In this document: piece by piece, positions 5,557-63,221 of the stretch | Numbering within the stretch: the first letter of the stretch is position 1 | Layout: each line of letters opens with the position of its first letter | Origin: Alphaproteobacteria bacterium | GTDB taxonomy: Bacteria; Pseudomonadota; Alphaproteobacteria; RF32; CAG-239 | DNA: 64,000 nt | Direction: 5' to 3' | NCBI GenBank assembly: GCA_045639065.1 | Contig: JAZUCK010000017.1 | Location: 5,752 to 69,751 of the forward strand | The notes under the pieces: generated by a model | The model's input: the letters and a program-made list of their open reading frames with translations, nothing else | What the model was told of the DNA's origin: nothing | Database searches by the model: none | Program-made: the position numbers and the translations under genes

Positions 5557-5752
5557 AAAAGGCGTCTAAAAGTTTTCTAGAGCCATTTTCTGCGGGCGAG
5601 AAAAATTCATGTACTTCTTTGTACACTAAAATTTTTCTCGCCTTGAAAATAACTCTATAAATTCTTTTATTCGCCTTTTTTGTACACTCCGCTTTCGCCG
5701 TCCTTTTTTGCTTCTATTATTCTCATTCTCCGAGTTTTTTGTACAACAAAAG

Positions 5753-5781
5753 AAAGAGCAACTCTTGCGAGTTGCTCTTTT
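5753..5781 (+). terminator. Intrinsic terminator-like hairpin about 200 nt downstream of hydA
   Basis: AAAGAGCAACTC-ttgc-GAGTTGCTCTTT: a perfect 12-bp stem with a 4-nt loop, followed by T. An A-run on the left gives it a bidirectional appearance. Confidence 0.5.
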
Positions 5782-6132
5782 GAATTTCTCTTTTCCTTTC
5801 GGATCCTTTCGGAAAAGATATGATTTCCTGTTACAATCCTTTATGTGATTGCAGTTTTGGCGAAAAAGTACCAATGGCTTTTTCTTGACCTATGCCGATC
5901 AAAAAATGGTCAATAATAATTGGCTCTCGCATTTGTTCTTCCTCTGCTTGGTCCACAGCGAATATACTAAAATCCATAAACATTATTACAGTATTTATAT
6001 TTGTTATACCCGCTAATATAACAAACAAAATAATATAAACCGAATATTTCTTTTAATATATCGAACAAAATGCACATGTTGAGTATCCTCCGTTCAGGAA
6101 AGCTTTTCATTTCAAAATACAAATCAGCCTAC

Positions 6133-6163
6133 AAAAAATGTTATTAACGGATAACATTTTTTG
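6133..6163. terminator. Bidirectional terminator-like hairpin inside the hydA-infB non-coding gap
   Basis: AAAAAATGTTAT-taacgg-ATAACATTTTTT: a perfect inverted repeat flanked by A and T runs. Confidence 0.5.
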
Positions 6164-6374
6164 ACCTCATAGTACAAGCTTACAACTGCTTTATACTTGA
6201 GTACCTAAAATCATAACATCCGTTTGTATTAGTGTACAACTACTAATACACAACCCATATTCGTGACATGGCCGTTGCCGGTGTTAGAGACTTGCTTGTT
6301 GAATGACAGTTCTTTACATAATAAGATTCGTGCGCCCTAATAATACTTTTACATTTATTATAATACCACGTTTA

Positions 6375-6384
6375 CCCCCCCCCC
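6375..6384. repeat. Homopolymeric C10 tract (G10 on the minus strand) in an AT-rich intergenic region
   Basis: Read directly: tttaCCCCCCCCCCatgtcaag. Confidence 0.9.
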
Positions 6385-6491
6385 ATGTCAAGTCTTTTAA
6401 CCTATTGAAATTCAATAATAAAATAAGATTTTTTTTACGAGCGTAAGAAAAATATAGCTATTTTTTATTCGAGTCGAAATTTATTACTAAC

Positions 6492-6523
6492 AAAAAACCA
6501 CCCCGTTTTGATGACGGGGTGGT
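6492..6523 (-). terminator. Rho-independent terminator of infB
   Basis: Minus strand reads ACCACCCCGUCAUCAAAACGGGGUGGU followed by UUUUUGUU, 20 nt after the infB stop. Confidence 0.8.
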
Positions 6524-6543
6524 TTTGTAATATTTGCTTTTTC

Positions 6544-18417: not shown

Positions 18418-21774
<3,357 letters not shown>

Positions 21775-22014
21775 CAACAAACCCAATAAACCAAATATTT
21801 CGCAATCAGTCATAGATTGCAAATTTTCAATAATATTATATGTAATAATTTAATACTTTGCAATAGATTTTAAGGGGTTGATGATAGTTTATGTCATTTT
21901 TCGATGTGCGCTATGTGTTACATCGTCAAGGAATCTTATCTTTGCGTCAGCGCTAATTATATTAAAAAAAGTAGAATATTCTTTGACCTCACTTTGTTCA
22001 AAGGAATGACTTAA

Positions 22015-24603: not shown

Positions 24604-25515
24604 TTATTTTAAGTTAAACACACGAATCGGCGAAATACGAGTTTCTTCAATTCGTACCAAGGCAACCGCTTCATCATTTAAGGTGGCTATTACATCTTGA
24701 CCGACAATGTTTGCAATGTCATAGGTCTTTGGTGATATTTTTTGCCCCATGCGAAGTTTGGCTGCGTCTTCTTCCCGTACGGCAATCACCGTGATGTCGC
24801 ACAGTGATGTCAAAAGGGGAAGTAATTGACTTTGGCGTTCGCCAATATAGCTCATATTTTTTAAAGATTCCAGTAAAATCGTATCAGAAAGGTCAAATTT
24901 TGCGCATTTTGTACGTCTTAGTGCTGTTAAATGGCCGAAAGAGCCAAGCTTTTGGGCAATATCAGCACCTAAAGTTCGGACGTAAGTGCCTTTTGAGCAT
25001 AATACTCGAAATTTATATTCATCAGCAGAGAGAATCGATAGAAGCTCTAAGTTATATATATCAATTTTACGTTCGGGTATGGTTACATCTTGTCCTTTGC
25101 GTGCCAAATCATAAGCCCGTTGACCATTGATTTTTATTGCTGAATAGGCGGGTGGAATTTGGGTTATTTTGCCGATAAATTCGGGAATTATGTTTAAGAT
25201 GTCTTCTTTTGTCGGAATCTTGCCACCGGTTTGGGTGGTTTGTCCCGTTAAATCTAAGGTATCGGTAGTTGAGCCAAACTTTAATGTAAATTCATATTCT
25301 TTAATCCCGTCGGTAACATAGGGAATGAGTTTGGTGGCTTCTCCGAAGGCAATCGGTAAAACGCCGGTGGCAAAAGGGTCTAATGTGCCGGTGTGACCGT
25401 TTTTGGAAGCATTTAGCAAACGACGTGTTTGGTTGACGACATCTGTCGAACCAATGCCCTCTTGCTTGTCGATAATTAACCATCCATGAATAGAATCGCC
25501 CTTGCGTTTTGCCAT
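24604..25515 (-). CDS. truB: tRNA pseudouridine-55 synthase TruB
   Basis: 303 aa, with [23 protein letters not shown] containing the catalytic Asp. Confidence 0.95.
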
Positions 25516-39217: not shown

Positions 39218-39230
39218 CTTTTCTTTTTCT

Positions 39231-39269
39231 CCTAAAGTATCATCATGTCATAAAATGCTCACTTATGTA
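39231..39269. repeat. 39-nt perfect direct repeat, copy 1 (overlaps the typA Shine-Dalgarno region)
   Basis: cctaaagtatcatcatgtcataaaatgctcacttatgta. An identical copy lies 107 nt away. Confidence 0.9.
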
Positions 39270-39337
39270 CTCTTTATTTGTACACCGCGTTTGCATTTTA
39301 TTTCCAGCATGACACTTTATGAGAAAAAAGGTCATGC

Positions 39338-39376
39338 CCTAAAGTATCATCATGTCATAAAATGCTCACTTATGTA
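39338..39376. repeat. 39-nt perfect direct repeat, copy 2
   Basis: Identical to 39231-39269. The flanking about 65 nt are also related (tttgtacac..., ttccagcat...). Confidence 0.9.
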
Positions 39377-39879
39377 TTTATTTTTGTACACTGCAAAATT
39401 AAAATAACTTCCAGCATTTACTTTTATAAAAGAAACGCAAAAGTGACATGATATTATTTATAAAATTTTTTACAAAATACACTTATGAATTTAAATTTCA
39501 ATAAAAAACAACAATGTTTTTTCTATTTTTTAAATAAGTGCTGAGTTTATTTAAACTCATCTGGATTTTTAAGGCAACTGAAGTTATAAAAAAATCCTTT
39601 CTTCCCTTAAAATTAAGGGAAGAGAAATAATGTCATGCCCTAAACGAAGCGTCAGCAAAGTGCGGACAGGCATCTTCCGCTTTCTTATGTTACTTTTTGG
39701 TGAGCAAAAAGTAACCAAAAACTCCCGCTCAAGATGTTTTTTTATACGCTTTTTTACTCGGATGTGCCTTTCACTATCGTTGGCAGGCTTTTATCGTATA
39801 AAAGGAGAATCTCCTCGTAAAAAAGCTAAAAAACATAAATCGCGGTTCTTGATTTTTCATTTTTTTGTCTAAAAATATA

Positions 39880-39908
39880 TTTACTTAATCTTAAAAATAT
39901 GCTATTAT
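39880..39908 (+). promoter_or_regulatory. Sigma70-like promoter TTTACT-N17-TATTAT upstream of the (AC)10 leader
   Basis: Hexamers and a 17-nt spacer were read directly. No experimental support. Confidence 0.4.
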
Positions 39909-39943
39909 GATACATACATTAACGAAACCAAGGGGTTTAAGAT

Positions 39944-40027
39944 ATGTGTGAAGTAATGCGTAATATCAACAAAGTAAGAAGTGTGAAAGTGGCGGAAATC
40001 TACACACACACACACACACACATTTAA
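39944..40027 (+). CDS. Putative 27-codon leader ORF containing the (AC)10 tract (MCEVMRNINKVRSVKVAEIYTHTHTHI*)
   Basis: ATG 39944 is preceded by AAGGGG 7 nt upstream. Stop TAA is at 40025-40027. Below the length threshold of the ORF track. Coding status is uncertain. Confidence 0.3.
   Translation: MCEVMRNINKVRSVKVAEIYTHTHTHI
40002..40022. repeat. Dinucleotide microsatellite (AC)10A
   Basis: Read directly (tctACACACACACACACACACACAttt). Confirmed by the KCVCVCVCRF stretch in the antisense track ORF. Confidence 0.95.
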
Positions 40028-40061
40028 ACTCTGCAAAGCACAATATAAACGAGATGAACAT

Positions 40062-40101
40062 ACACCCAAAGGGATAATACTCCTTTGGGTGTTTTGCTTT
40101 T
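40062..40101 (+). terminator. Intrinsic terminator between the leader ORF and the 412-aa gene
   Basis: ACACCCAAAGG-gataatact-CCTTTGGGTGT: a perfect 11-bp stem followed by TTTGCTTTT. Confidence 0.7.
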
Positions 40102-40123
40102 GTACAAAACAAGGAGAAGAGAG

Positions 40124-41362
40124 ATGGGAATAGAGGATATTCTAAAAGAATTAGGTCTGAAGACAAATGATCCGGAAGAGCATTTGAGAGAATTAGCCGA
40201 TAATTGTGATTTTAAAACATATAAAAATGAATTTATGCCTGAAAAATCTGATCCTGAAAAATTTGTTGTAAAAACGGTTAAAGAAACGGGAAGCGGATAT
40301 GTCATAGATATGGATAATATGGTTATACCGGGGATAAGTTCTCCATGTTTTGTACCTAAAGAATGCGGTATTGATATGAAGGAAGGAATGTTAGTAATAC
40401 GTGATAGTGGATTTTTGGGTGTAAATTGTGCAACTACTTTTTATTCCCCTCAAGGAGAATTATTGGGAGGATATAAAGATGTTAATGGAGCCAGGGAAAT
40501 TATTAAACTAAATAAAAAAAGTGGAAAAGAATGTAATGCTACGCTAAAAGAACGGATCGCTAATAAAAAAATAAACAATAAAGTTGAATTAGCGACAGTG
40601 TGGGTAGATCCAAACGATCCTAGTAAAGGAAGAGTTCCAGTTAGTCTTTTGGATACTAGAAGCTTATTAGATAAAATAAGAGAAAGAAAAAAAGGTATAA
40701 AAGGTATAAAAGGGGATGTGGCTACGCTAAAAGAACGGATCGCTGATAAAATAAACAATGAAGGTGAATTAGCCGATAATTGTGATTTTAAACCAAATAA
40801 AAATGACAGATCCGGTGATGAACGCCAAAGCTTTGCATCATTAGTAGCAAAAATGGCTGTTGCAGAAAACAGGTCAAAAACTCCGGATGATATATTAGCT
40901 GAAGATAAACAGTGTACAGTAGGGAGAACACCTGATGATATTGCTAAGGCACATGAATCAATAGATAAAATGCCACAAGCATTAAGCCTGCTAGGCAAGG
41001 CAATGATGGATGAAGGTTTACCTGGTTTTAGGGTCGTTTCTAAACTTAAAGATATTAGAGATATTCTATCATCACAAGGTGCAGAAAGAGATTATTATAC
41101 TAAAGAAAAGGAGGCGTTTTTTGCACCTGATATGCCTGCTGTGGAATGTCTTGAGCAACTTCAGAAAGATGGCGTTTTGAATGAGAAGCTAGCTATATTG
41201 AAGCCTGAAAAATTTTTAGAGTCAAAAATAGTTACAACTGCGGCAGGACTTCATGTTGCAAATATTGATTTAAGGAATACTCCAACAATGCAAAACTATA
41301 AGAGGTTTATAAACTGTATAAGGAGCAATTCTTCATATAATAAATGGGGTAAAAAATACTAA
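40124..41362 (+). CDS. Orphan hypothetical protein (412 aa) with internal sequence duplications
   Basis: ATG 40124 follows AAGGAGAAGAGAG. Internal repeats: ELADNCDFK(T/P).KN occurs twice and ATLKERIA(N/D)K..NN occurs twice. No signal peptide, TM segment or known domain seen. Confidence 0.7.
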   Translation: MGIEDILKELGLKTNDPEEHLRELADNCDFKTYKNEFMPEKSDPEKFVVKTVKETGSGYVIDMDNMVIPGISSPCFVPKECGIDMKEGMLVIRDSGFLGVNCATTFYSPQGELLGGYKDVNGAREIIKLNKKSGKECNATLKERIANKKINNKVELATVWVDPNDPSKGRVPVSLLDTRSLLDKIRERKKGIKGIKGDVATLKERIADKINNEGELADNCDFKPNKNDRSGDERQSFASLVAKMAVAENRSKTPDDILAEDKQCTVGRTPDDIAKAHESIDKMPQALSLLGKAMMDEGLPGFRVVSKLKDIRDILSSQGAERDYYTKEKEAFFAPDMPAVECLEQLQKDGVLNEKLAILKPEKFLESKIVTTAAGLHVANIDLRNTPTMQNYKRFINCIRSNSSYNKWGKKY

Positions 41363-50560: not shown

Positions 50561-52717
50561 ATGATAGAATATGTACTTGAACCCAAAGAAGATGCTCTGA
50601 AGATAGTTTTTGGCAATAAGTTTAATGATTTTATGTTTAATGATGTTTCTGATGTTCTTTCTCAAAGAAGAATATCAGAAATGGGCAATTTATTACATCA
50701 GAAAGAAAATCGTCTTTCGTTGCTTAATGCAGAAAAATTAAATATTTTGTATAATACTTTGGCTAATCCTCAATCGGCATCTGAAAGAGGTGCTTTAGAA
50801 GAAGTGTTAAAGGCTGTTGACAGCAAAATACAAGCTTTTGTTACAGGAAAAGAGGATATTGAGGGTGATTGTATAGAGTCAATGATATCTTTAATACAGA
50901 AATGCTCTAAAAATGCCGTTAATAAAAATAATCATGAAATGTATAATATGGCCTTAAACAGAGCTGTGCTTGTCGGTCAGAAATATGATGCTGAAAATGG
51001 TTTGAGCGATATTACTAAAGATAAAATCAACCTTATAGAATCGAACCTAAAGAAGATGTCTGAGTGGCAGGTTGATGTCACCAATCTAGATGAAACTCCG
51101 GAAAATAGAGTTGTGAATATTCCGGAAGATAGATTTTTGGAGTTTGTTCAAAAAAGAATTATTGGAAAGGAAAATGTAAGTTTTTCTGATTTGCATTCGG
51201 CGTTTATTGCATTAAAAGGGTATAAAAAAAGTGAAGAAACGTATACACCTATTGAAAAGCAAGCCGAAGCCAGAATTTTAAAATCCTTAAAGTCAAAAGA
51301 AAATCTTTCACCAAGTGAGCTTATCAGCGCTAAATATGTTTATGATGAGCTACAAACGTCTAATAAAAAAATTGTAAAAAGTATACATGGTTTCGGTAAA
51401 AAGATTGCCTTAAGTGTTCAAAAGAATAAGAGTATAAAAGTTTTTGATGCAATTGAAAGCATTATAAGGAATACCGAAGTTACAGGAAAAGCAAAATTTT
51501 TCGGACGAGAAATCGTTAAACAAACCGACAAAAACGGTAAGTTAAAGAAAAATAGTGATATTGCCTTATGGTTGGAAGCCGTTCGAAATAAAACTTTGTG
51601 TCAATTGGCTACAACAAGCGGATTAACAAAAGACAAATTTAATCAGGTTTTTATAGATAATGCCGTTTGTGAATATATGGAATTGGCTGTTACAAATAAT
51701 ACTTTTGATAAAAAAAGCCGTAAAAAAGATTTTAAAAAGCTTTTTGCCAATATCGGTAACAATAAAAAAATCAGAATTTCGCAAGATGTGATTATGGGTG
51801 GAGTGGCTAATTTAGCCAGTCAGAATGAAAGTTTTGTATCCAGATTAAGTGTTAAGCTGAAAAAAGTTGTTTATGGAATTGAGGACTCAAAGGAAAGAGC
51901 TGCCAAAACTATTACTTCAAACAAAATTGTAGCCACATTAAAAGATAAAGGAGAAGCCTTAGATGAAAAATGTACCAAAAGTTGGGGTGATAAATACTTA
52001 ATGGCAAAAGGATTTGTCAAAGCTATCGGAAAACAATCGGCTTGGGCAATGGCTTTTAATGTGGCAAAGGTTGTAGGTGTGGCAACAAATGCTACGTGGG
52101 TTCTTCCAACAGTGGTTGCCGTTTCTTTTGCTAATGCAACATATCAGTTCGGAAAAGATTATATCCAAGCTAAAAATGATATTAAGAAAAAAGGTAAAGA
52201 GCTTAAATTTAAGGATTTTTGTAAGAAAAACAAAGTAAGATTAGGTTATCTTGCGTTGAGTGGTGCGGTAACAGCGGCTACTGCCGGAGTTTTAGGAGCA
52301 AATGCTTCATCAGTTATTTTGAATTCAAAAGTTTTGGTTAGCGGAGGATTGGTTGCTTGTAAAATTGCTGATAAAATTGCCGAGGATAAGAAAAAGAATA
52401 AAAATAAAATACAAATATTTGTAGGTGCATGTATTACCGCCGTAACCTCAACTGTAGGTTATTTGGTATCAAAAGGTATGGGTAAAGAGGCTTTTGATTC
52501 GTCGAAGAATTTTGTTGATGTATCTGCTTCTTATGGTGCAGATAATGAAGTTGATTCGTCTTTCGGTGTCCATGGAAAAGGTAAAGACAGATTAAATAAC
52601 AAGAGACAAAAAGCAATAAAAATTGTTCCCTTGAATTCTGTTTTGAATAAAGAAACAGATGGTGAGAAGTATAATGTAGTGCAATCTGCATTAGATAAGT
52701 ATAAGACATCAAGATAG
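50561..52717 (+). CDS. Orphan protein (718 aa): helical N-terminal about 480 aa plus a C-terminal block of 3-4 predicted TM helices
   Basis: Long intact ORF. Hydrophobic segments: AWAMAFNVAKVVGVATNATWVLPTVVAVSFA, LGYLALSGAVTAATAGVLGA and IQIFVGACITAVTSTVGYLV. No domain recognised. Confidence 0.65.
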   Translation: MIEYVLEPKEDALKIVFGNKFNDFMFNDVSDVLSQRRISEMGNLLHQKENRLSLLNAEKLNILYNTLANPQSASERGALEEVLKAVDSKIQAFVTGKEDIEGDCIESMISLIQKCSKNAVNKNNHEMYNMALNRAVLVGQKYDAENGLSDITKDKINLIESNLKKMSEWQVDVTNLDETPENRVVNIPEDRFLEFVQKRIIGKENVSFSDLHSAFIALKGYKKSEETYTPIEKQAEARILKSLKSKENLSPSELISAKYVYDELQTSNKKIVKSIHGFGKKIALSVQKNKSIKVFDAIESIIRNTEVTGKAKFFGREIVKQTDKNGKLKKNSDIALWLEAVRNKTLCQLATTSGLTKDKFNQVFIDNAVCEYMELAVTNNTFDKKSRKKDFKKLFANIGNNKKIRISQDVIMGGVANLASQNESFVSRLSVKLKKVVYGIEDSKERAAKTITSNKIVATLKDKGEALDEKCTKSWGDKYLMAKGFVKAIGKQSAWAMAFNVAKVVGVATNATWVLPTVVAVSFANATYQFGKDYIQAKNDIKKKGKELKFKDFCKKNKVRLGYLALSGAVTAATAGVLGANASSVILNSKVLVSGGLVACKIADKIAEDKKKNKNKIQIFVGACITAVTSTVGYLVSKGMGKEAFDSSKNFVDVSASYGADNEVDSSFGVHGKGKDRLNNKRQKAIKIVPLNSVLNKETDGEKYNVVQSALDKYKTSR

Positions 52718-52735: not shown

Positions 52736-53895
52736 TTATAGTCCGATTTTTACAATATCTTTGCCGAATTTTTGTTCCAAATCATCGAGAATTCGCGAAA
52801 GTTTGTCGTCGTCTTGTTTAAAATTGTCAAATAATGATTGCTGAGTTTCGTTATTGTATGTCAGGTGGCGCAGTTCTACGCCTATACTACGATACAATAA
52901 TTTTGGTCGGTATAATTGGTTTAGCAGCAGGTTTGCTTGTTTGCGTAAACTAAGCTCTGAATTGGTTGCGGTTTCAAGTTTTCCGAACAGGGTTGTTATG
53001 CTAAAATCTTTAGTTCGTAAAAGAACACCTATTTCAGAGCAATAGCCATTCCAATGACGTAGTTTTTTTGATGCATTGTGTACGTGATAAACCAGTTGTG
53101 AATGTAAGAAATCTTTATTATCAGTAAAATCTTCAAAAGATTTGGTATCTTGAATTGATTGCGGTGCTTTTGGTGAGGCATCAACCGGTGAAGTAGAAAT
53201 TCCGGAAAGTTCAAGTTTTAGATTAAAACCGTTTATTCCCAAAAGTTTTTTTATCCATGTATTATCTTTATTTATAAAATCTTTTATGGTGAATATCCCA
53301 TTGAATTTTAATGATTTTGCGCTTTGTGAGCCAATTCCGCAGATATCCTCAATATTTTCGTTGCCGATAGTTTCTAATATTTTATCAGGTCGAATAACAA
53401 AAATTCCGCCGGTTTTCTTGGCCTTGTCACTGGCAAGTTTGGCTAAAGTTTTTGATGAAGACAGTCCGATAGATACCGGAATTGATGTTTTATCTAAAAT
53501 GGTTTGGCGAATTTTTTTATTATATCGGTATAAGTGGAATTATATACTTTGTTTAGTCCGGTTAAGTCTATATAAGCCTCATCAACAGAAACTTCTTCAA
53601 CATCGGGGCTGAAGGTTTTGATAACATCCATAACCTGTTTGGATATTTCGTCATAACGATGGTGACGGGTGGGTAAGCAGATTAAGTCAGGGTATAAGCC
53701 TTTGAATTGAAAATAGGGTGCGCCCATTTTTATTCCTAAAGCTTTGGCTTCTTTGGAACGGGATACGACAATCCCTTTGTTGCCCTCAGATGTCATTACA
53801 CAAACAGGCTTTGCTTGCAAGGAAGGGTTGTCAACTCTTTCGCAAGATACAAAAAATGAATCACAATCAATAAGAGCTATAATTTGTTGTTTCAT
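52736..53895 (-). pseudogene. Y-family DNA polymerase (UmuC/DinB-like) interrupted by one frameshift in an A7 run
   Basis: Track ORFs 53494-53895 (IALIDCDSFFVSCE...VDEAYIDLTG) and 52736-53242 (little-finger region) are joined by an open mid-segment in the frame of the C-terminal ORF (IRQTILDKTSIPVSIGLSSSKTLAKLASDKAKKTGGIFVI...). The frames switch at the T7/A7 tract 53512-53518. One extra A restores a protein of about 386 aa. Confidence 0.85.
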
Positions 53896-59180: not shown

Positions 59181-60434
59181 ATGGATTTTGTTGAAAATTT
59201 GCAAACAGAAGATAATGATATTTTTGGTATAATCGGAAAAGAGTTGAAACGTCAGCAACAACAAATAGAACTTATTGCTTCGGAGAATATTGTATCTCGC
59301 GCAGTTATGGAGGCTCAAGGTTCGATTTTGACCAATAAATATGCTGAAGGATATCCTAATAAACGTTATTATCACGGTTGCGAATTTGTTGACGAGATTG
59401 AAACATTGGCTATAGAAAGAGCAAAAAAACTTTTTAATGCTAAGTTTGCTAATGTTCAGCCACATTCAGGAAGTCAGGCTAATGTTGCCGTTTATTTGGC
59501 TTTGTTAAAACCGAATGATACTCTTTTGGGTATGAGCCTTGATGCCGGCGGTCACTTGACCCATGGTTCAAAAGTTTCGATTTCGGGTAAATGGCTTAAT
59601 TCGGTTTCTTATGGCGTGGATAAAGACAGCGGTTTGATTGATTATGATATGGTGGAAAAATTGGCCGTTGAACACAGTCCAAAACTTATAATTGCAGGTG
59701 GTTCGGCTTATCCGAGAGCTATTGATTTTGCACGCTTTAGAAAAATTGCCGATAAAGTCGGTGCTTATCTTATGGTCGATATGGCTCACTTTGCCGGACT
59801 TGTTGCCGGTGGTGTTCATCAAAATCCGCTTGAGTTTGCCGATGTGGTAACATCTACCACACACAAAACTTTGCGCGGTCCTCGTGGCGGACTTATTTTG
59901 ACTAATAATGAAGAGTTGGCTAAGAAAATAAATTCAGCAATTTTTCCAGGTTCGCAAGGTGGACCTTTAATGCACGTAATTGCCGGAAAAGCTGTGTGCT
60001 TTAAGGAAGACTTGAGTGATAAATTCAAAGAATATGCTAAGCAAGTTGTAAAAAATGCCGTTGTTTTAGGTGAAACTTTGAAAAAAAGAGGTTTGGAATT
60101 AGTTTCCGGCGGAACAGATACCCATTTGTTGTTGGTTGACCTAAGACCAAAGAATGTGACAGGCGACATTGTTGCCGATGCTTTGGATAAAGCTCATATG
60201 ACTTGTAATAAAAACTCTATTCCTTTTGATCCTATGCCGCCAAAGGTAACTTCGGGTATCAGATTGGGAACTCCGGCCGGCACAACCAGAGGATTTAAGG
60301 AAAAAGAGTTTGAAATGATAGGAACTTGGATTGCCGATGTGATTGAGGCAATCGGAACATCTGATGAAGCAAAAGTCATTGAAGAAACTTCTAAAAAAGT
60401 TCTTGGTTTGTGCAATCAATTTCCGATTTATTAG
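59181..60434 (+). CDS. glyA: Serine hydroxymethyltransferase
   Basis: 417 aa. [10 protein letters not shown], and [16 protein letters not shown] containing the PLP lysine. Confidence 0.97.
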
Positions 60435-60454
60435 AATAAGTTTTTAGCTATTTT

Positions 60455-60881
60455 AAAAAAGAAACCACGACCTTCCCAGGCAGTGGTTTTCAATAAATGG
60501 CAAAATAAAAAAACTTGTGGTTAAGCGGAACAAGAAGTTCCTATATCTTTGGTAAAATAATTTTCATAAAAGGACAGTCAACTTCGCAGCTCACTGCCCA
60601 CTGAAACAGTTTAAGTATTTAACCCTTTGGAAAAAGGGGTTCGTATGAACAAAAATGTTCATTGTATGTTTTCAACTATGGCTTAAAAAAAATTAAGCGA
60701 CAGTTTGATGATTTTCACAAAAGACAGTCAACTTCGCAGCTCACTGTCTCCAAACTAGTGTTACCTAGAAATTCATATGACTAAAGCAAAAAGCCCAATA
60801 TATTGAACGAAAGAAGTCCAATATATTTTCCTTGTACGTCATATAGACACCCCAATAATTCAACAACATAATATGACTTTG
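60455..60881 (-). ncRNA. Putative structured ncRNA unit A (promoter 60889-60917 to terminator 60463-60488); contains two repeat modules
   Basis: Minus-strand TTGACC-N17-TAGAGA promoter. The terminator AACCACUGCC-UGGGAA-GGUCGUGGUU followed by UUUCUUUUUU also serves glyA on the plus strand. No ORF of 60 aa or more. Confidence 0.45.
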
Positions 60882-60943
60882 TGAAACATCTCTAGCACAT
60901 TTATTTTTTTGGGTCAATATTTTTTTTGTCTACATAAAAGCAT

Positions 60944-61407
60944 AAAAAAAAACCGCGACCTTCACAGGCCACGGTTCAAGAAAAAGTAAATGTAAATGTA
61001 TTTAACCCTTGAAAAGGGGTGGGGTATGAACATAATGTTCATTATATATTTTTAACTATGGCTTAAAAAATTTAAGCGATAGTTTGATAATTTTCATAAA
61101 AAGACAGTCAACTTCTCAGCTCACTGCCTCCGTGGGAAAAATCCCAATTATGCAAAAAATCAAAGTAATGGAGCTTAGTAGCTCATTATATGTTTTCAAC
61201 TGTGGCTTAACGGTATTTAAGCGGTAGTTGGGATAAATCTTCACAAAGGAACCACAATCTGTCTCAGACTATAGTTCCCAAAAAATTTAACATTATGCGT
61301 AGATCCATCAGAGAATCAGAACTCAAAAACTCTGATGTGGGGTATTAAGTATAATATTACGATTTATCAAAAAAAGTTTAATGATTGTCATAATAATACT
61401 TAATGAT
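60944..61407 (-). ncRNA. Putative structured ncRNA unit B (promoter 61415-61443 to terminator 60951-60976); contains two repeat modules
   Basis: Minus-strand TTGACC-N17-TACATA promoter. The terminator AACCGUGGCC-UGUGAA-GGUCGCGGUU followed by U9 is a perfect stem only on the minus strand, where two mismatches become G-U pairs. Confidence 0.5.
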
Positions 61408-61474
61408 GACAAGATATGTAGCATAATTTTTAAGGTAGGTCAATAGTTTTTTTTGTCTATATTTGTTTGATTCT

Positions 61475-61768
61475 AAAAAAAACCGCGACTTTCCCAAGCC
61501 ACGGTTTTCGATGAAATGAAAATTAAAGTATTTAACCCCGAAGGGCTATGTTTTGTAACTATGGCTTAAAAGTTTAAGCGATAGTTTTAAGAATCTTCAT
61601 AAAAGAACCACGACCTGTCTCAGGCAGTAGTTCCACCGTCATTTTTCAACTCATTTTTATTTATGAATAGAGCACTACGCGACAAGAATAGTGCTTTTCC
61701 TTAAATTTAAGTATTGTTATGATTTATCACTTTGAAGGATACTTATATCTTAATAATACTTAAAACAT
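61475..61768 (-). ncRNA. Putative structured ncRNA unit C (promoter 61776-61804 to terminator 61481-61506); contains one repeat module
   Basis: Minus-strand TTGACA-N17-TACGCA promoter. The terminator AACCGUGGCU-UGGGAA-AGUCGCGGUU followed by U8 shows a compensatory C-G to U-A change relative to unit B. Confidence 0.5.
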
Positions 61769-61895
61769 ACGAGTATGCGTATCAGATGTTGGATAACTTG
61801 TCAATATTTTTTGTCTAAAATATTTAAATAAAATATTTAGATTTGGTATGTTATGCTAAAGTGCTTGGATAATTAGAATATAAGGACGATTAAAA

Positions 61896-63221
61896 ATGAA
61901 AAAAATAAGCACTTCGAAGTTGGCGGAAATTGTCGGTTTTAAGGGCGAATTGATTGATGTAGTGATAGAAAGAGTTGAAACCGACAGTCGTAAGATTCAA
62001 AAAGGCGATTTGTTTATTGCCATTAGGGGCGAAAAATTTGACGGTCATAATTTTGTTAAACAAGTTTTGGAAGCCGGTGCGGAACTGGTAGTTGTTGAAG
62101 AGTTAGTTGAAGGTGTTGATGTAAAAAGGCAAATTGTCGTTGAAAATTCGCTTAAGGCATATGGTAAAATAGGCGCTTATAATCGTTCGTTGTTTAAAGG
62201 AAAAGTCATCGGACTGACCGGCAGTGCCGGAAAGACCACAACCAAAGAAGAAATAAAATTTGCATTGGAACAGTTTGGCAAGGTATATGCCACAAAAGGC
62301 AATTTTAATAATAATGTCGGCGTGCCGATTACTTTGTGCGATATAGATTTTGATGCCGATTATGCGGTGATTGAAATGGGTATGAGTGCCAAAGGCGAAA
62401 TTGAAGAATTGGTCGATTATGTAAAGCCGGATATTGCGATTGTTACCAATGTTTATCCGATGCATATCGAATTTTTTAACGAGTTTAAGGATATTGCCGA
62501 AGCTAAGGCCGAAATTTTTAAATCTCTGAAAAAAGGCGGTGCGGCAATTATCAATCAAGATACCAATTTTGCCGATATTTTAGAAAACAGAGCCAAAGAA
62601 AATGGCGCAAAAATCATCAAATTCGGCAAAGAAAATCATATCAATGCCGAGTTAAAACTTGATGATGAAGCCGAGCATAATTTTTATAATGCTTGGTGCG
62701 TCTTAGCACTAATTGAAGAGCTTGGTTTAGATGTTAAAAAAACAGCAGAGCATTTGAGCGGATTTAAGGCTTTGGCCGGACGTGGTGCAAAGCATTTGTT
62801 AAATTTGGCAAACGGCGGAAAATATACTTTGATTGATGATAGTTATTCCGGTCAGCCGGAAGCAATGAAAATTGCAATAAAATCGTTGGGTAATATGAAA
62901 ACGCAAGGTCGTAAAATTGCGGTTTTGGGTAAAATGGCCGAACTTGGCGATACTTCGAAAGCGCAACATATCGAAATTGGCAAAGCGGTCGCAAATACTA
63001 ATATTGATATTGTTATCGGGGTTTGTGAAGAGATGAAAGATATGTTGGCTCAAGTCGGAAGTGATAAAGAAAAGCATTATTTTGAAAATAAAGAAGGATT
63101 AGATGAATTTTTGTTAAATAAGTGCTTGCAAAATAATGATATTGTTCTTATAAAAGGGGCAAGGTATTCTTCAAAATTATACCAAGTAACGGAAAAACTT
63201 TTGGAAAAAGGTGTGGCTTAA
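61896..63221 (+). CDS. murF: UDP-N-acetylmuramoyl-tripeptide--D-alanyl-D-alanine ligase
   Basis: 441 aa. [14 protein letters not shown]-loop and Mur ligase middle and C-terminal domains. Not embedded in a dcw cluster here. Confidence 0.92.

Follow-up and report, generated by a model that had tools for sequence, protein, structure and literature searches.

The 1461-nucleotide (nt) gap between glyA (59181-60434, plus strand) and murF (61896-63221, plus strand) in contig JAZUCK010000017.1 of an uncultured alphaproteobacterium is a real, organised feature. We interpret this gap (positions 60435-61895 of the 64,000-nt stretch that was analysed as a whole, hereafter the window) as an array in which three genes, duplicated in tandem, encode structured non-coding small RNAs (sRNAs), which would form a lineage-specific family transcribed from the minus strand, from the murF side towards the 3' end of glyA. 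The probability of this reading is, in our estimate, about 0.6. That the array is a set of functional non-coding RNA genes can be proposed with fairly high confidence from the sequence comparisons.

The gap contains no open reading frame (ORF) of 60 amino acids (aa) or more, as the first-pass annotation of this DNA had noted and a re-check confirmed, and consists of three homologous non-coding units, each with a predicted promoter and terminator. The promoters, terminators and modules listed in that annotation all lie, on re-reading, where it had placed them; none of them recurs in the rest of the 64 kb, and all greatly exceed the numbers expected from shuffled sequence. Its overall view of the gap, three minus-strand, non-coding, multi-hairpin units, is supported by the Rfam search, by the search for dispersed copies and by the analyses of covariation, strand and coding capacity.

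Promoters, terminators and strand

The three minus-strand promoters proposed at the outset, TTGACC-N17-TAGAGA (60889-60917), TTGACC-N17-TACATA (61415-61443) and TTGACA-N17-TACGCA (61776-61804), can be read directly and are denoted here P1, P2 and P3. All three combine an extended -10 TG with an upstream AGACAAAAAA motif, which occurs three times in 64 kb against 0.13 expected, each time at an array promoter; the AGACAAAAA..TTGA motif is also confined to the array within the window. An alignment of 18 distinct homologous promoters from the window and its relatives shows invariant TTGAC, TG and TA..A at a fixed spacing, an A-tract just upstream, and a variable first half of the spacer between the -35 element and the TG. 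Such invariant signals around a free spacer are the pattern expected under selection on promoter function. The common grammar (A-tract, TTGACC, 14 nt, then TGnTAnAnA) is found at the tRNA-Cys/Asn promoter of the window as well, in line with the resemblance that had been pointed out previously. TTGAC combined with GCTANAWC-like -10 elements is typical of alphaproteobacterial housekeeping promoters, and an A-tract beside the -35 element works as a proximal UP element; this combination suggests high expression of the array units. No promoter signals precede the internal modules.

The three proposed terminators (60463-60488, 60951-60976 and 61481-61506) are borne out by the reanalysis. The "second long hairpin" of the first-pass annotation is present too but does not make up a class separate from the terminators: both belong to a single hairpin family, in which 7 bp form the outer stem and 4 bp the inner one, with a single variable internal position and a GNRA loop. 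The gap contains six terminator-like sites against 0.9 expected, and three copies of the GACAGUGAGCU-GCGA-AGUUGACUGUC hairpin against 0 expected, with none elsewhere in the window. In the alignment of 25 distinct copies of the family, a mixture of paralogues and orthologues, 93.7% of the cells are paired, a level unmatched by column shuffles or slid registers, and 10 of the 12 pairs are changed on both sides in at least some copies, in keeping with the compensatory changes originally noticed in the terminators. The loops are GGGA, GUGA, GCGA, GAGA and, once, GGAA, with the second base free.

This hairpin family also discriminates between the strands. It contains 48 G-U pairs and no A-C, which corroborates the observation that pairs on the minus strand become mismatches on the plus strand; because these 48 G-U pairs would be 48 mismatches on the plus strand, the helix appears to be selected in the minus-strand transcript. 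The filter used to collect the hairpins admitted G-U and not A-C, but the resulting set is nearly the same as that retrieved by sequence-only profiles, so that the bias from the filter is small. The minus-strand folds are 31-106 kcal/mol more stable than the plus-strand folds in six of six arrays, and the z-scores of the window units are -5.9, -9.5 and -5.1, compared with -4.0 for the plus strand of unit 2. Thus, both the G-U versus A-C counts and the fold energies favour the minus strand to which the units had been assigned.

The hairpins show the arrangement of intrinsic terminators, with stems of 11-12 pairs, GNRA loops and, on the transcribed strand, a directly adjoining U run. These runs are long at the unit ends (U7-U9) and short at the internal hairpins (U3-U5), with medians of 7 and 4, respectively (Mann-Whitney p = 0.002), which agrees with the earlier idea of read-through at the internal sites. 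On the simplest reading, the internal hairpins would be sites of leaky termination or processing that yield nested RNAs with a common 5' end. A by-eye search for an antiterminator competing with the internal hairpin found no conserved candidate.

The coding potential of the array is negligible by several measures. The ORFs that start after the internal hairpins of the window comprise 8, 42, 13, 11 and 8 aa, and their tails are unrelated; 16 of the 23 homologous junctions in relatives contain neither ATG nor GTG; and the loop lengths of the long stem described below differ by amounts that are not multiples of three. Several arrays have in common an ORF of 33 aa, which begins inside the -10 element and thus upstream of the expected transcription start. 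Gene callers predicted no ORFs in most of the homologous gaps. Small-protein genes were rejected, given that start codon, frame and length are not conserved among the copies; the mini-ORFs are, as first stated, not conserved, and on these comparisons the array units are non-coding.

Leaders, modules and the long stem

The order of elements, mapped with small nhmmer profiles, is identical in every array: promoter; long AU-rich leader hairpin (LH); second leader hairpin, free in sequence; internal hairpin of the terminator type, with a short U run; junction, with GAUUUAUC or a close variant; long stem (H2); single-stranded ACAUAYA; one or two small hairpins; and a further terminator-type hairpin. 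The module from junction to hairpin may be repeated within a unit, the last hairpin of which carries U7-U9. The second leader hairpin differs in sequence between units and is always formed, and the small hairpins of the modules are constant in position and wholly different in sequence between copies, so that every module folds to a common plan despite unrelated small-hairpin sequences. The stretches that are conserved and unpaired are GAUUUAUC, ACAUAYA, UAAAUAC and UUUUGCCAU. The predicted full-length transcripts are about 295 nt (unit 3), 465 nt (unit 2) and 425 nt (unit 1). The features of the array are collected in Table 1.

Table 1. Predicted elements of the glyA-murF array, listed in the direction of transcription (MFE, minimum free energy fold)
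Feature	Coordinates	Strand	Description	Basis
P3 promoter	61776..61816	-	AGACAAAAAA A-tract, -35 TTGACA, extended -10 TGA-TACGCA; divergent to murF	Direct reading, motif search, 18-promoter alignment
Unit 3 LH	61707..61764	-	Long AU-rich stem, conserved UUAAGUAUUAUUA ... GAUAAAUC ... AAUACUUAA	Inverted repeat, nhmmer map, MFE
Unit 3 second leader hairpin	61671..61695	-	AGCACUA...UAGUGCU	MFE
Unit 3 internal terminator-type hairpin	61605..61633	-	Followed by only U4	
Module R1	61476..61604	-	Junction; H2 61557-61586; single-stranded ACAUAG; small hairpin CCCUUCGGGG; final terminator 61480-61507 with U8	
P2 promoter	61415..61458	-	AGACAAAAAAAA, -35 TTGACC, TGC-TACATA	Direct reading, motif search, alignment
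Unit 2 LH	61345..61404	-		
Unit 2 second leader hairpin	61306..61337	-	CAUCAGAG...CUCUGAUG; present also in L085 and L094	
Unit 2 internal terminator-type hairpin	61248..61278	-	Followed by U3	
Module R2	61099..61247	-	Junction GAUUUAUC; H2 61198-61229; hairpins GAGCUACUAAGCUC and GGGAUUUUUCCC; hairpin 61103-61128 with GAGA loop, U5	
Module R3	60946..61101	-	Junction; H2 61054-61084; hairpins AUGAACA..UGUUCAU and ACCC..GGGU; final terminator 60950-60977 with U9	
P1 promoter	60889..60931	-	AGACAAAAAAAA, -35 TTGACC, TGC-TAGAGA	Direct reading, motif search, alignment
Unit 1 leader	60750..60882	-	Other type than in units 2 and 3; hairpins GUCAUAU..AUAUGAC and AAUAUAUUGGAC..GUUCAAUAUAUU	Inverted repeat, MFE
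Unit 1 internal terminator-type hairpin	60722..60749	-	GCGA loop, U4	
Module R4	60568..60721	-	Junction; H2 60674-60705; hairpins AUGAACA..UGUUCAU and ACCCC..GGGU; hairpin 60572-60599 with U4	
Terminal module R5	60456..60571	-	Distinct type; hairpin GGAACUUCUUGUUCC; single-stranded UUUUGCCAU; last terminator 60462-60489, which also faces the glyA 3' end	

The long stem was originally described as a 12-bp helix. The stem itself is present in four copies, against 0.03 expected and with none elsewhere in the window, but its length has to be revised: H2 spans 13 positions, AACUAUCGCUUAA / UUAAGCCAUAGUU, one of which is an internal mismatch, conserved as C.C or, at times, U.C. Across 17 copies, H2 is 93% paired with four covarying pairs, counts that come from paralogues and orthologues and do not represent independent events; most of the covarying pairs derive from one variant class, GCUAUCGUAAU / AUUACCAUAGC. 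The basal core CUAUCG/CCAUAG and the mismatch are invariant in sequence, the mismatch being kept in both stem variants, and the loops are A/U-rich and variable in length and sequence. Covariation, which the first-pass annotation had proposed as a check, is accordingly evident in the terminator-type hairpins, and the long stem shows it to a modest degree. As for the five modules of that annotation, four are long-stem copies; the fifth, a supposed half-deleted copy at 60513-60534, turns out to be a distinct module type (R5) that is found at the glyA end of L085 and L094 as well (77% identity), that is, of three arrays in all.

In 10 of the 11 folded units, the 3' arm of the LH carries GAUAAAUC (GGUAAAUC in L085), the exact complement of the GAUUUAUC junction that lies 110-150 nt downstream, after the first internal hairpin. 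When this 8-nt helix is forced, the fold is 0-8 kcal/mol above the MFE, and in 2 of the 11 units the helix is within the MFE. Pairing of GAUAAAUC with GAUUUAUC could, in these models, enclose the internal hairpin in a domain or serve as a switch; the near-invariance of the two motifs leaves no covariation by which to judge the helix. Within the leader, the alignment of the unit 3 LH contains an A-U to G-C change at the base of the stem. From whole leaders, RNAalifold retrieved nothing beyond the internal terminator and the basal part of the leader hairpin; the middle of the leader is too divergent to align.

Related loci and probable exchange between them

A protein-guided scan, with one genome per species, places the window among uncultured, low-G+C gut and rumen Alphaproteobacteria, the metagenome-assembled genomes of which are labelled Alphaproteobacteria, Rhodospirillales or "uncultured Azospirillum". 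The murF-nrdR arrangement is common to about 55 species-level relatives, and homologues of the array are confined to the glyA-murF gap of the closest of these (MurF 89-93% identical). An exact lookup of the window GlyA and MurF returned no record, and RpiB matched only contigs shorter than 1.6 kb. When the gaps of the relatives are read on the minus strand and mapped with the element profiles, the number of units ranges from one to at least four. L001 (identical to L087 and L088) and L095 have gaps of 1005 nt with two promoter units; L085, 1108 nt with two; the window, 1461 nt with three; L097, 1945 nt with four; and L094, in which the contig starts inside the gap, at least 1814 nt with at least three promoters mapped. 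L002 and L089 have gaps of 374-419 nt with one unit, which combines the same promoter and terminator with a different body. The equally close L003 has a gap of 32 nt and no unit, and in the next clade, L004-L008, the gaps comprise 18-127 nt. The long stem is missing from the units of L002 and L089 and from units 3 and 4 of L097, and is present up to three times per transcript in unit 2 of L094. Several contigs end inside the gap, as expected of a repeat.

The array segments are more conserved than the synonymous sites of murF. Between the window and the array-bearing relatives, the four-fold degenerate sites of murF are 59-70% identical, compared with 70-87%, and in one case 99%, for orthologous array segments. 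A 270-nt block (61336-61608), which takes in R1 with its terminator, the spacer, P2 and the leader hairpin that follows, matches L094 (minus-strand gap positions 402-670) at 94-100% identity, with flanks that are 50-85% identical and synonymous murF sites that are 62% identical between the two. Module R1 is 99% identical to a module in L094, and the unit 1 leader is 83% identical to the leader of L094 unit 4. These identities point to purifying selection, probably combined with recent exchange of array segments; an alternative for the near-identical block is a strain-mixing assembly artefact. Because unit 1 of L094 joins a window-type leader, an L001-type module and a window-type module, the arrays are mosaics.

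Such mosaicism invites a bolder interpretation, which we consider doubtful: the locus could be a cassette-like, fast-recombining small-RNA island in which promoters, leaders, R modules and terminator hairpins are interchangeable parts, duplicated, lost and swapped between diverged strains. Selection would diversify the repertoire at the level of strains, perhaps for decoys or guides against phages or competitors, and not for housekeeping regulation. The terminator hairpins and promoters would then double as recombination homology, and the GAUAAAUC/GAUUUAUC switch could set the read-through of the polymerase into the modules.

A mobile or palindromic element, that is, a miniature inverted-repeat transposable element (MITE), a repetitive extragenic palindromic (REP)-like sequence or integron-type cassettes with folded recombination sites, is highly improbable and the least favoured of the readings that we weighed. 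Imperfect palindromes of 28 nt do recur at the module borders, the module content is mosaic, and one block is nearly identical to L094 despite diverged flanking genes. However, these palindromes precede U runs and look like terminators, and profile and covariance-model searches, which covered the window plus 0.98 Mb (about 1 Mb) of related loci, found no copy outside the glyA-murF gaps. The repeats are direct repeats of whole units with terminator-to-promoter borders, and neither flanking or terminal inverted repeats nor target-site duplications are seen. A Pfam-level survey of the window proteins found no integrase, transposase, reverse transcriptase, Cas protein, toxin or Hfq, nor is there a CsrA, ProQ, recombinase or DUF1127 protein among them; an integron cassette array was rejected as well, since the window encodes neither an integrase nor a recombinase and the units lack conserved ORFs. 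A blastn search of plasmids and phages with the gap gave no match, and the long-stem pattern returned nothing from metagenome or viral contigs; the metagenome collection, however, also failed to return L087, a Joint Genome Institute (JGI) contig (JGI 3300024303) with a gap identical to that of L001, which fits the pattern, so that the collection is incomplete for JGI contigs and its negatives are weak. The three or four matches of the terminator-hairpin pattern in these collections are attributable to chance, being marine contigs without other array elements. In sum, the dispersal that had been named as a possible objection was not encountered in the window, the related loci or the plasmid, phage, viral and metagenome collections.

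More distant relatives (L009, L010, L012, L013, L017, L018, L046 and L065) have a minus-strand lipoprotein-like ORF (MKK...C signal) in the glyA-murF gap. This ORF mostly lies behind a UAUUAUUAAC leader motif that also opens the RNA leaders of the window, and in several of these genomes a TTAGACAAA element marks the promoter region, which hints that the RNA genes may have grown from the promoter and leader of an older gene. A different ncRNA-like unit resides on the minus strand of the same gap in L015 (4190-4580, once) and L017 (8336-10000, twice): its parts are a promoter, two hairpins (one long, the other GCGUUGUGAAACGC), a UUUUGCC motif and a terminator, and it was not matched to the family of the window.

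The possible descent from a protein gene bears on another explanation, namely, that the array is a near-neutral by-product, the leftover promoter, leader and terminator of a lost minus-strand gene amplified by unequal crossing-over. The lipoprotein-like ORF behind a similar TTAGACAAA promoter region and UAUUAUUAAC leader motif would fit this scenario, as would the variation in unit number among close relatives, from none in L003 to at least four, and the frequent breaks of contigs inside the gap. We nevertheless deem it unlikely: promoter signals are invariant in 18 copies, compensatory changes maintain the hairpins, array identity exceeds that of synonymous sites, and the small hairpins hold their position while their sequence changes completely, all of which are signatures of selection on an RNA.

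The units might, alternatively, act in cis, as an insulator or terminator block between glyA and murF or as divergent promoters controlling murF. The last hairpin, directed at the 3' end of glyA, can terminate the glyA transcript, P3 is back to back with a conserved TAAATATTTTATTTA region upstream of murF, and relatives that lack the array have a glyA-murF spacing of 18-32 nt. Yet one terminator and one promoter would suffice for such a role, which leaves three promoters, conserved leaders and up to about 10 modules unexplained, and the predicted transcripts overlap neither glyA nor murF; a cis-acting array is, accordingly, very unlikely.

Upstream of murF, at 61817-61850, we also observe a palindromic AT-rich motif, (C)TAAATATTTTATTTAAA, which is shared with L001, L002, L009, L010, L012 and L013. 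Being conserved whatever fills the gap, it may be a promoter or operator element of murF.

Known RNA families and possible roles

With the gathering threshold of Rfam 15 as the criterion of membership, cmscan detects only two tRNAs in the whole window and no match in the array. A permissive scan of 60300-62000 gave L10_leader (RF00557) as the best hit, with 25.6 bits against a cut-off of 44. Like the array units, L10_leader combines an AU-rich stretch with a subsequent terminator hairpin and U run; unlike a genuine member, the array reaches only 20-26 bits, the match rests on the terminator, and there is no rplJ downstream.

The nearest known locus in layout is the NsiR1 array of Nostoc sp. 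PCC 7120, with 12 tandem, partly diverged copies of about 60 nt, each with its own promoter, upstream of hetF (PMC9045159). Each NsiR1 transcript has one module; the heterocyst DIF1 motif marks the promoters, and one of the copies lies antisense to hetF. Both loci place homologous units in tandem within one intergenic region, with a promoter per copy, but the units described here are 300-470 nt long and multi-module, with internal terminator-like hairpins, housekeeping-type promoters and no gene overlap, and there is no sequence or Rfam similarity between the two.

The CcsR1-4/cuckoo RNAs (the Rfam ar14 group) are head-to-tail, hairpin-rich sRNAs that are co-transcribed and then processed, from loci that are prone to duplication and rearrangement; they are defined by two hairpins with CCUCCUCCC loops and by linkage to a DUF1127 gene (PMC8034643). 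The likeness to the array consists in several homologous, hairpin-rich units lying head to tail in Alphaproteobacteria. In contrast to the CcsR RNAs, which arise from the untranslated region of an mRNA, the array units have their own promoters. Membership was rejected: even with one mismatch allowed, no CCTCCTCCC occurs in the gap, and the neighbours are glyA and murF, with no DUF1127 in the window. The initial statement that no known RNA family is present thus holds, both for Rfam and for the cuckoo features.

Two other comparisons concern function. PrrF1-PrrF2 of Pseudomonas aeruginosa are tandem sibling sRNAs, with read-through of the first terminator giving the longer PrrH; there are two copies, which are regulated by iron through Fur and depend on Hfq. 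PrrF/PrrH is the nearest parallel to the nested transcripts that we infer at the short-U internal hairpins, without any sequence relation. CsrB/RsmZ-type RNAs are highly expressed and bind CsrA/RsmA through repeated GGA hairpin loops; they resemble the array in that many repeated hairpins present one motif several times. In the array, by contrast, the repeated conserved element is a long mismatched stem, the loops of the terminator-type hairpins are generic GNRA loops, and the window contains no CsrA gene. The CsrB/Rsm sponge class was rejected given these loops, which are not GGA-specific, and the variable, A/U-rich loops of the long stem. A type III toxin-antitoxin (ToxI-like) system was rejected, too, as the array, on its transcribed strand, leads into the 3' end of glyA, a convergent gene, and no toxin ORF is present. 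By these comparisons, the array would be a new family within a known kind of locus, the tandem arrays of sibling sRNA genes such as NsiR1, LhrC and PrrF.

If the array encodes sRNAs, their expression could proceed as follows. A strong housekeeping-type promoter would start each unit; the folded leader would end in a GNRA-capped hairpin with a short U run; and the transcript would run on into one or two R modules and stop at a hairpin with U7-U9. Leaky or processed internal hairpins would yield nested RNAs from each promoter. The expected sizes are about 165 and 295 nt in unit 3; the other two units would each give RNAs of about 160 and 310 nt, plus a longest product of about 465 nt (unit 2) or 425 nt (unit 1). 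These RNAs would most likely act in trans as sibling regulators, a role that we favour with low confidence, and would contact mRNAs, an RNA-binding protein or both through the invariant long stem and the conserved unpaired stretches.

The main rival to regulation in trans is a protein-binding function, by which the RNAs would sequester or scaffold a protein on the CsrB/RsmZ-type principle, with the long stem and its C.C mismatch as a reiterated binding site. Both arms of the long stem are conserved in sequence and its loop is variable, whereas in the other hairpins shape alone is retained; the array has strong promoters that resemble those of tRNA genes; and the site recurs once per module, up to three times per transcript. 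Conversely, no candidate protein gene is linked to the array (CsrA, Hfq and ProQ are all missing from the window), the loops in the 25 hairpin copies are not GGA-specific, and units without the long stem exist in L002, L089 and L097. We rate the probability of this role as low but appreciable.

Several observations weigh against our principal interpretation of the array as sRNA genes. L003, with only 32 nt between glyA and murF, shows that the array is dispensable, and it could therefore be nearly neutral. The -10 hexamers of P1-P3 end in A and lack the usual final T, which is why a generic sigma-70 scan skipped all three promoters. The high conservation may be due in part to recent recombination rather than constraint, and the 25 hairpin copies are not independent samples. 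Transcription, read-through and both transcript ends are predictions from the sequence, and the search for further copies in this genome covered 64 kb. Among the 50 window genes, complements of UUUUGCCAU and of the long-stem arm do not rise above chance, with uninformative duplex energies, and no target, seed or partner protein emerged. As a potential target, truB (24604-25515), which starts with AATGGCAAAA, was rejected, the match being within chance for 50 genes.

The remaining genes of the window are an ordinary anaerobe housekeeping set. On the upstream side of glyA lie rpiB and the tRNA-Cys/tRNA-Asn pair, and nrdR follows downstream of murF. On the minus strand, a DinB/IMS-family Y-polymerase (52736-53895) is split into an IMS N-terminal part (53494-53895) and an IMS_C part (52736-53242), with about 250 nt between them, and could be a frameshifted pseudogene or an assembly error. 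Three ORFs, at 18418-21822 (minus strand, 1134 aa), 50561-52717 (plus strand, 718 aa) and 40085-41362 (plus strand, 425 aa), have no Pfam match at E <= 1e-5. Two segments of 0.9-1 kb, 5557-6543 and 39218-40084, contain no ORF of at least 90 aa by a crude gene call, no array elements and no Rfam match at the gathering score.

The array is a well-supported candidate in an uncultured organism rather than a field-changing finding. About 25 terminator-type hairpins and 18 module cores provide a covariance-model seed for the annotation of metagenomes. To our knowledge, no regulatory RNAs have been described in this low-G+C, uncultured lineage of gut and rumen Alphaproteobacteria, and the units, if expressed, would be among the first. 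They would then offer a clear natural example of a multi-module sRNA gene with graded internal terminators, of sRNA families that expand, shrink and recombine between strains, and of a non-coding gene that may have arisen from a lost protein gene's promoter and leader.

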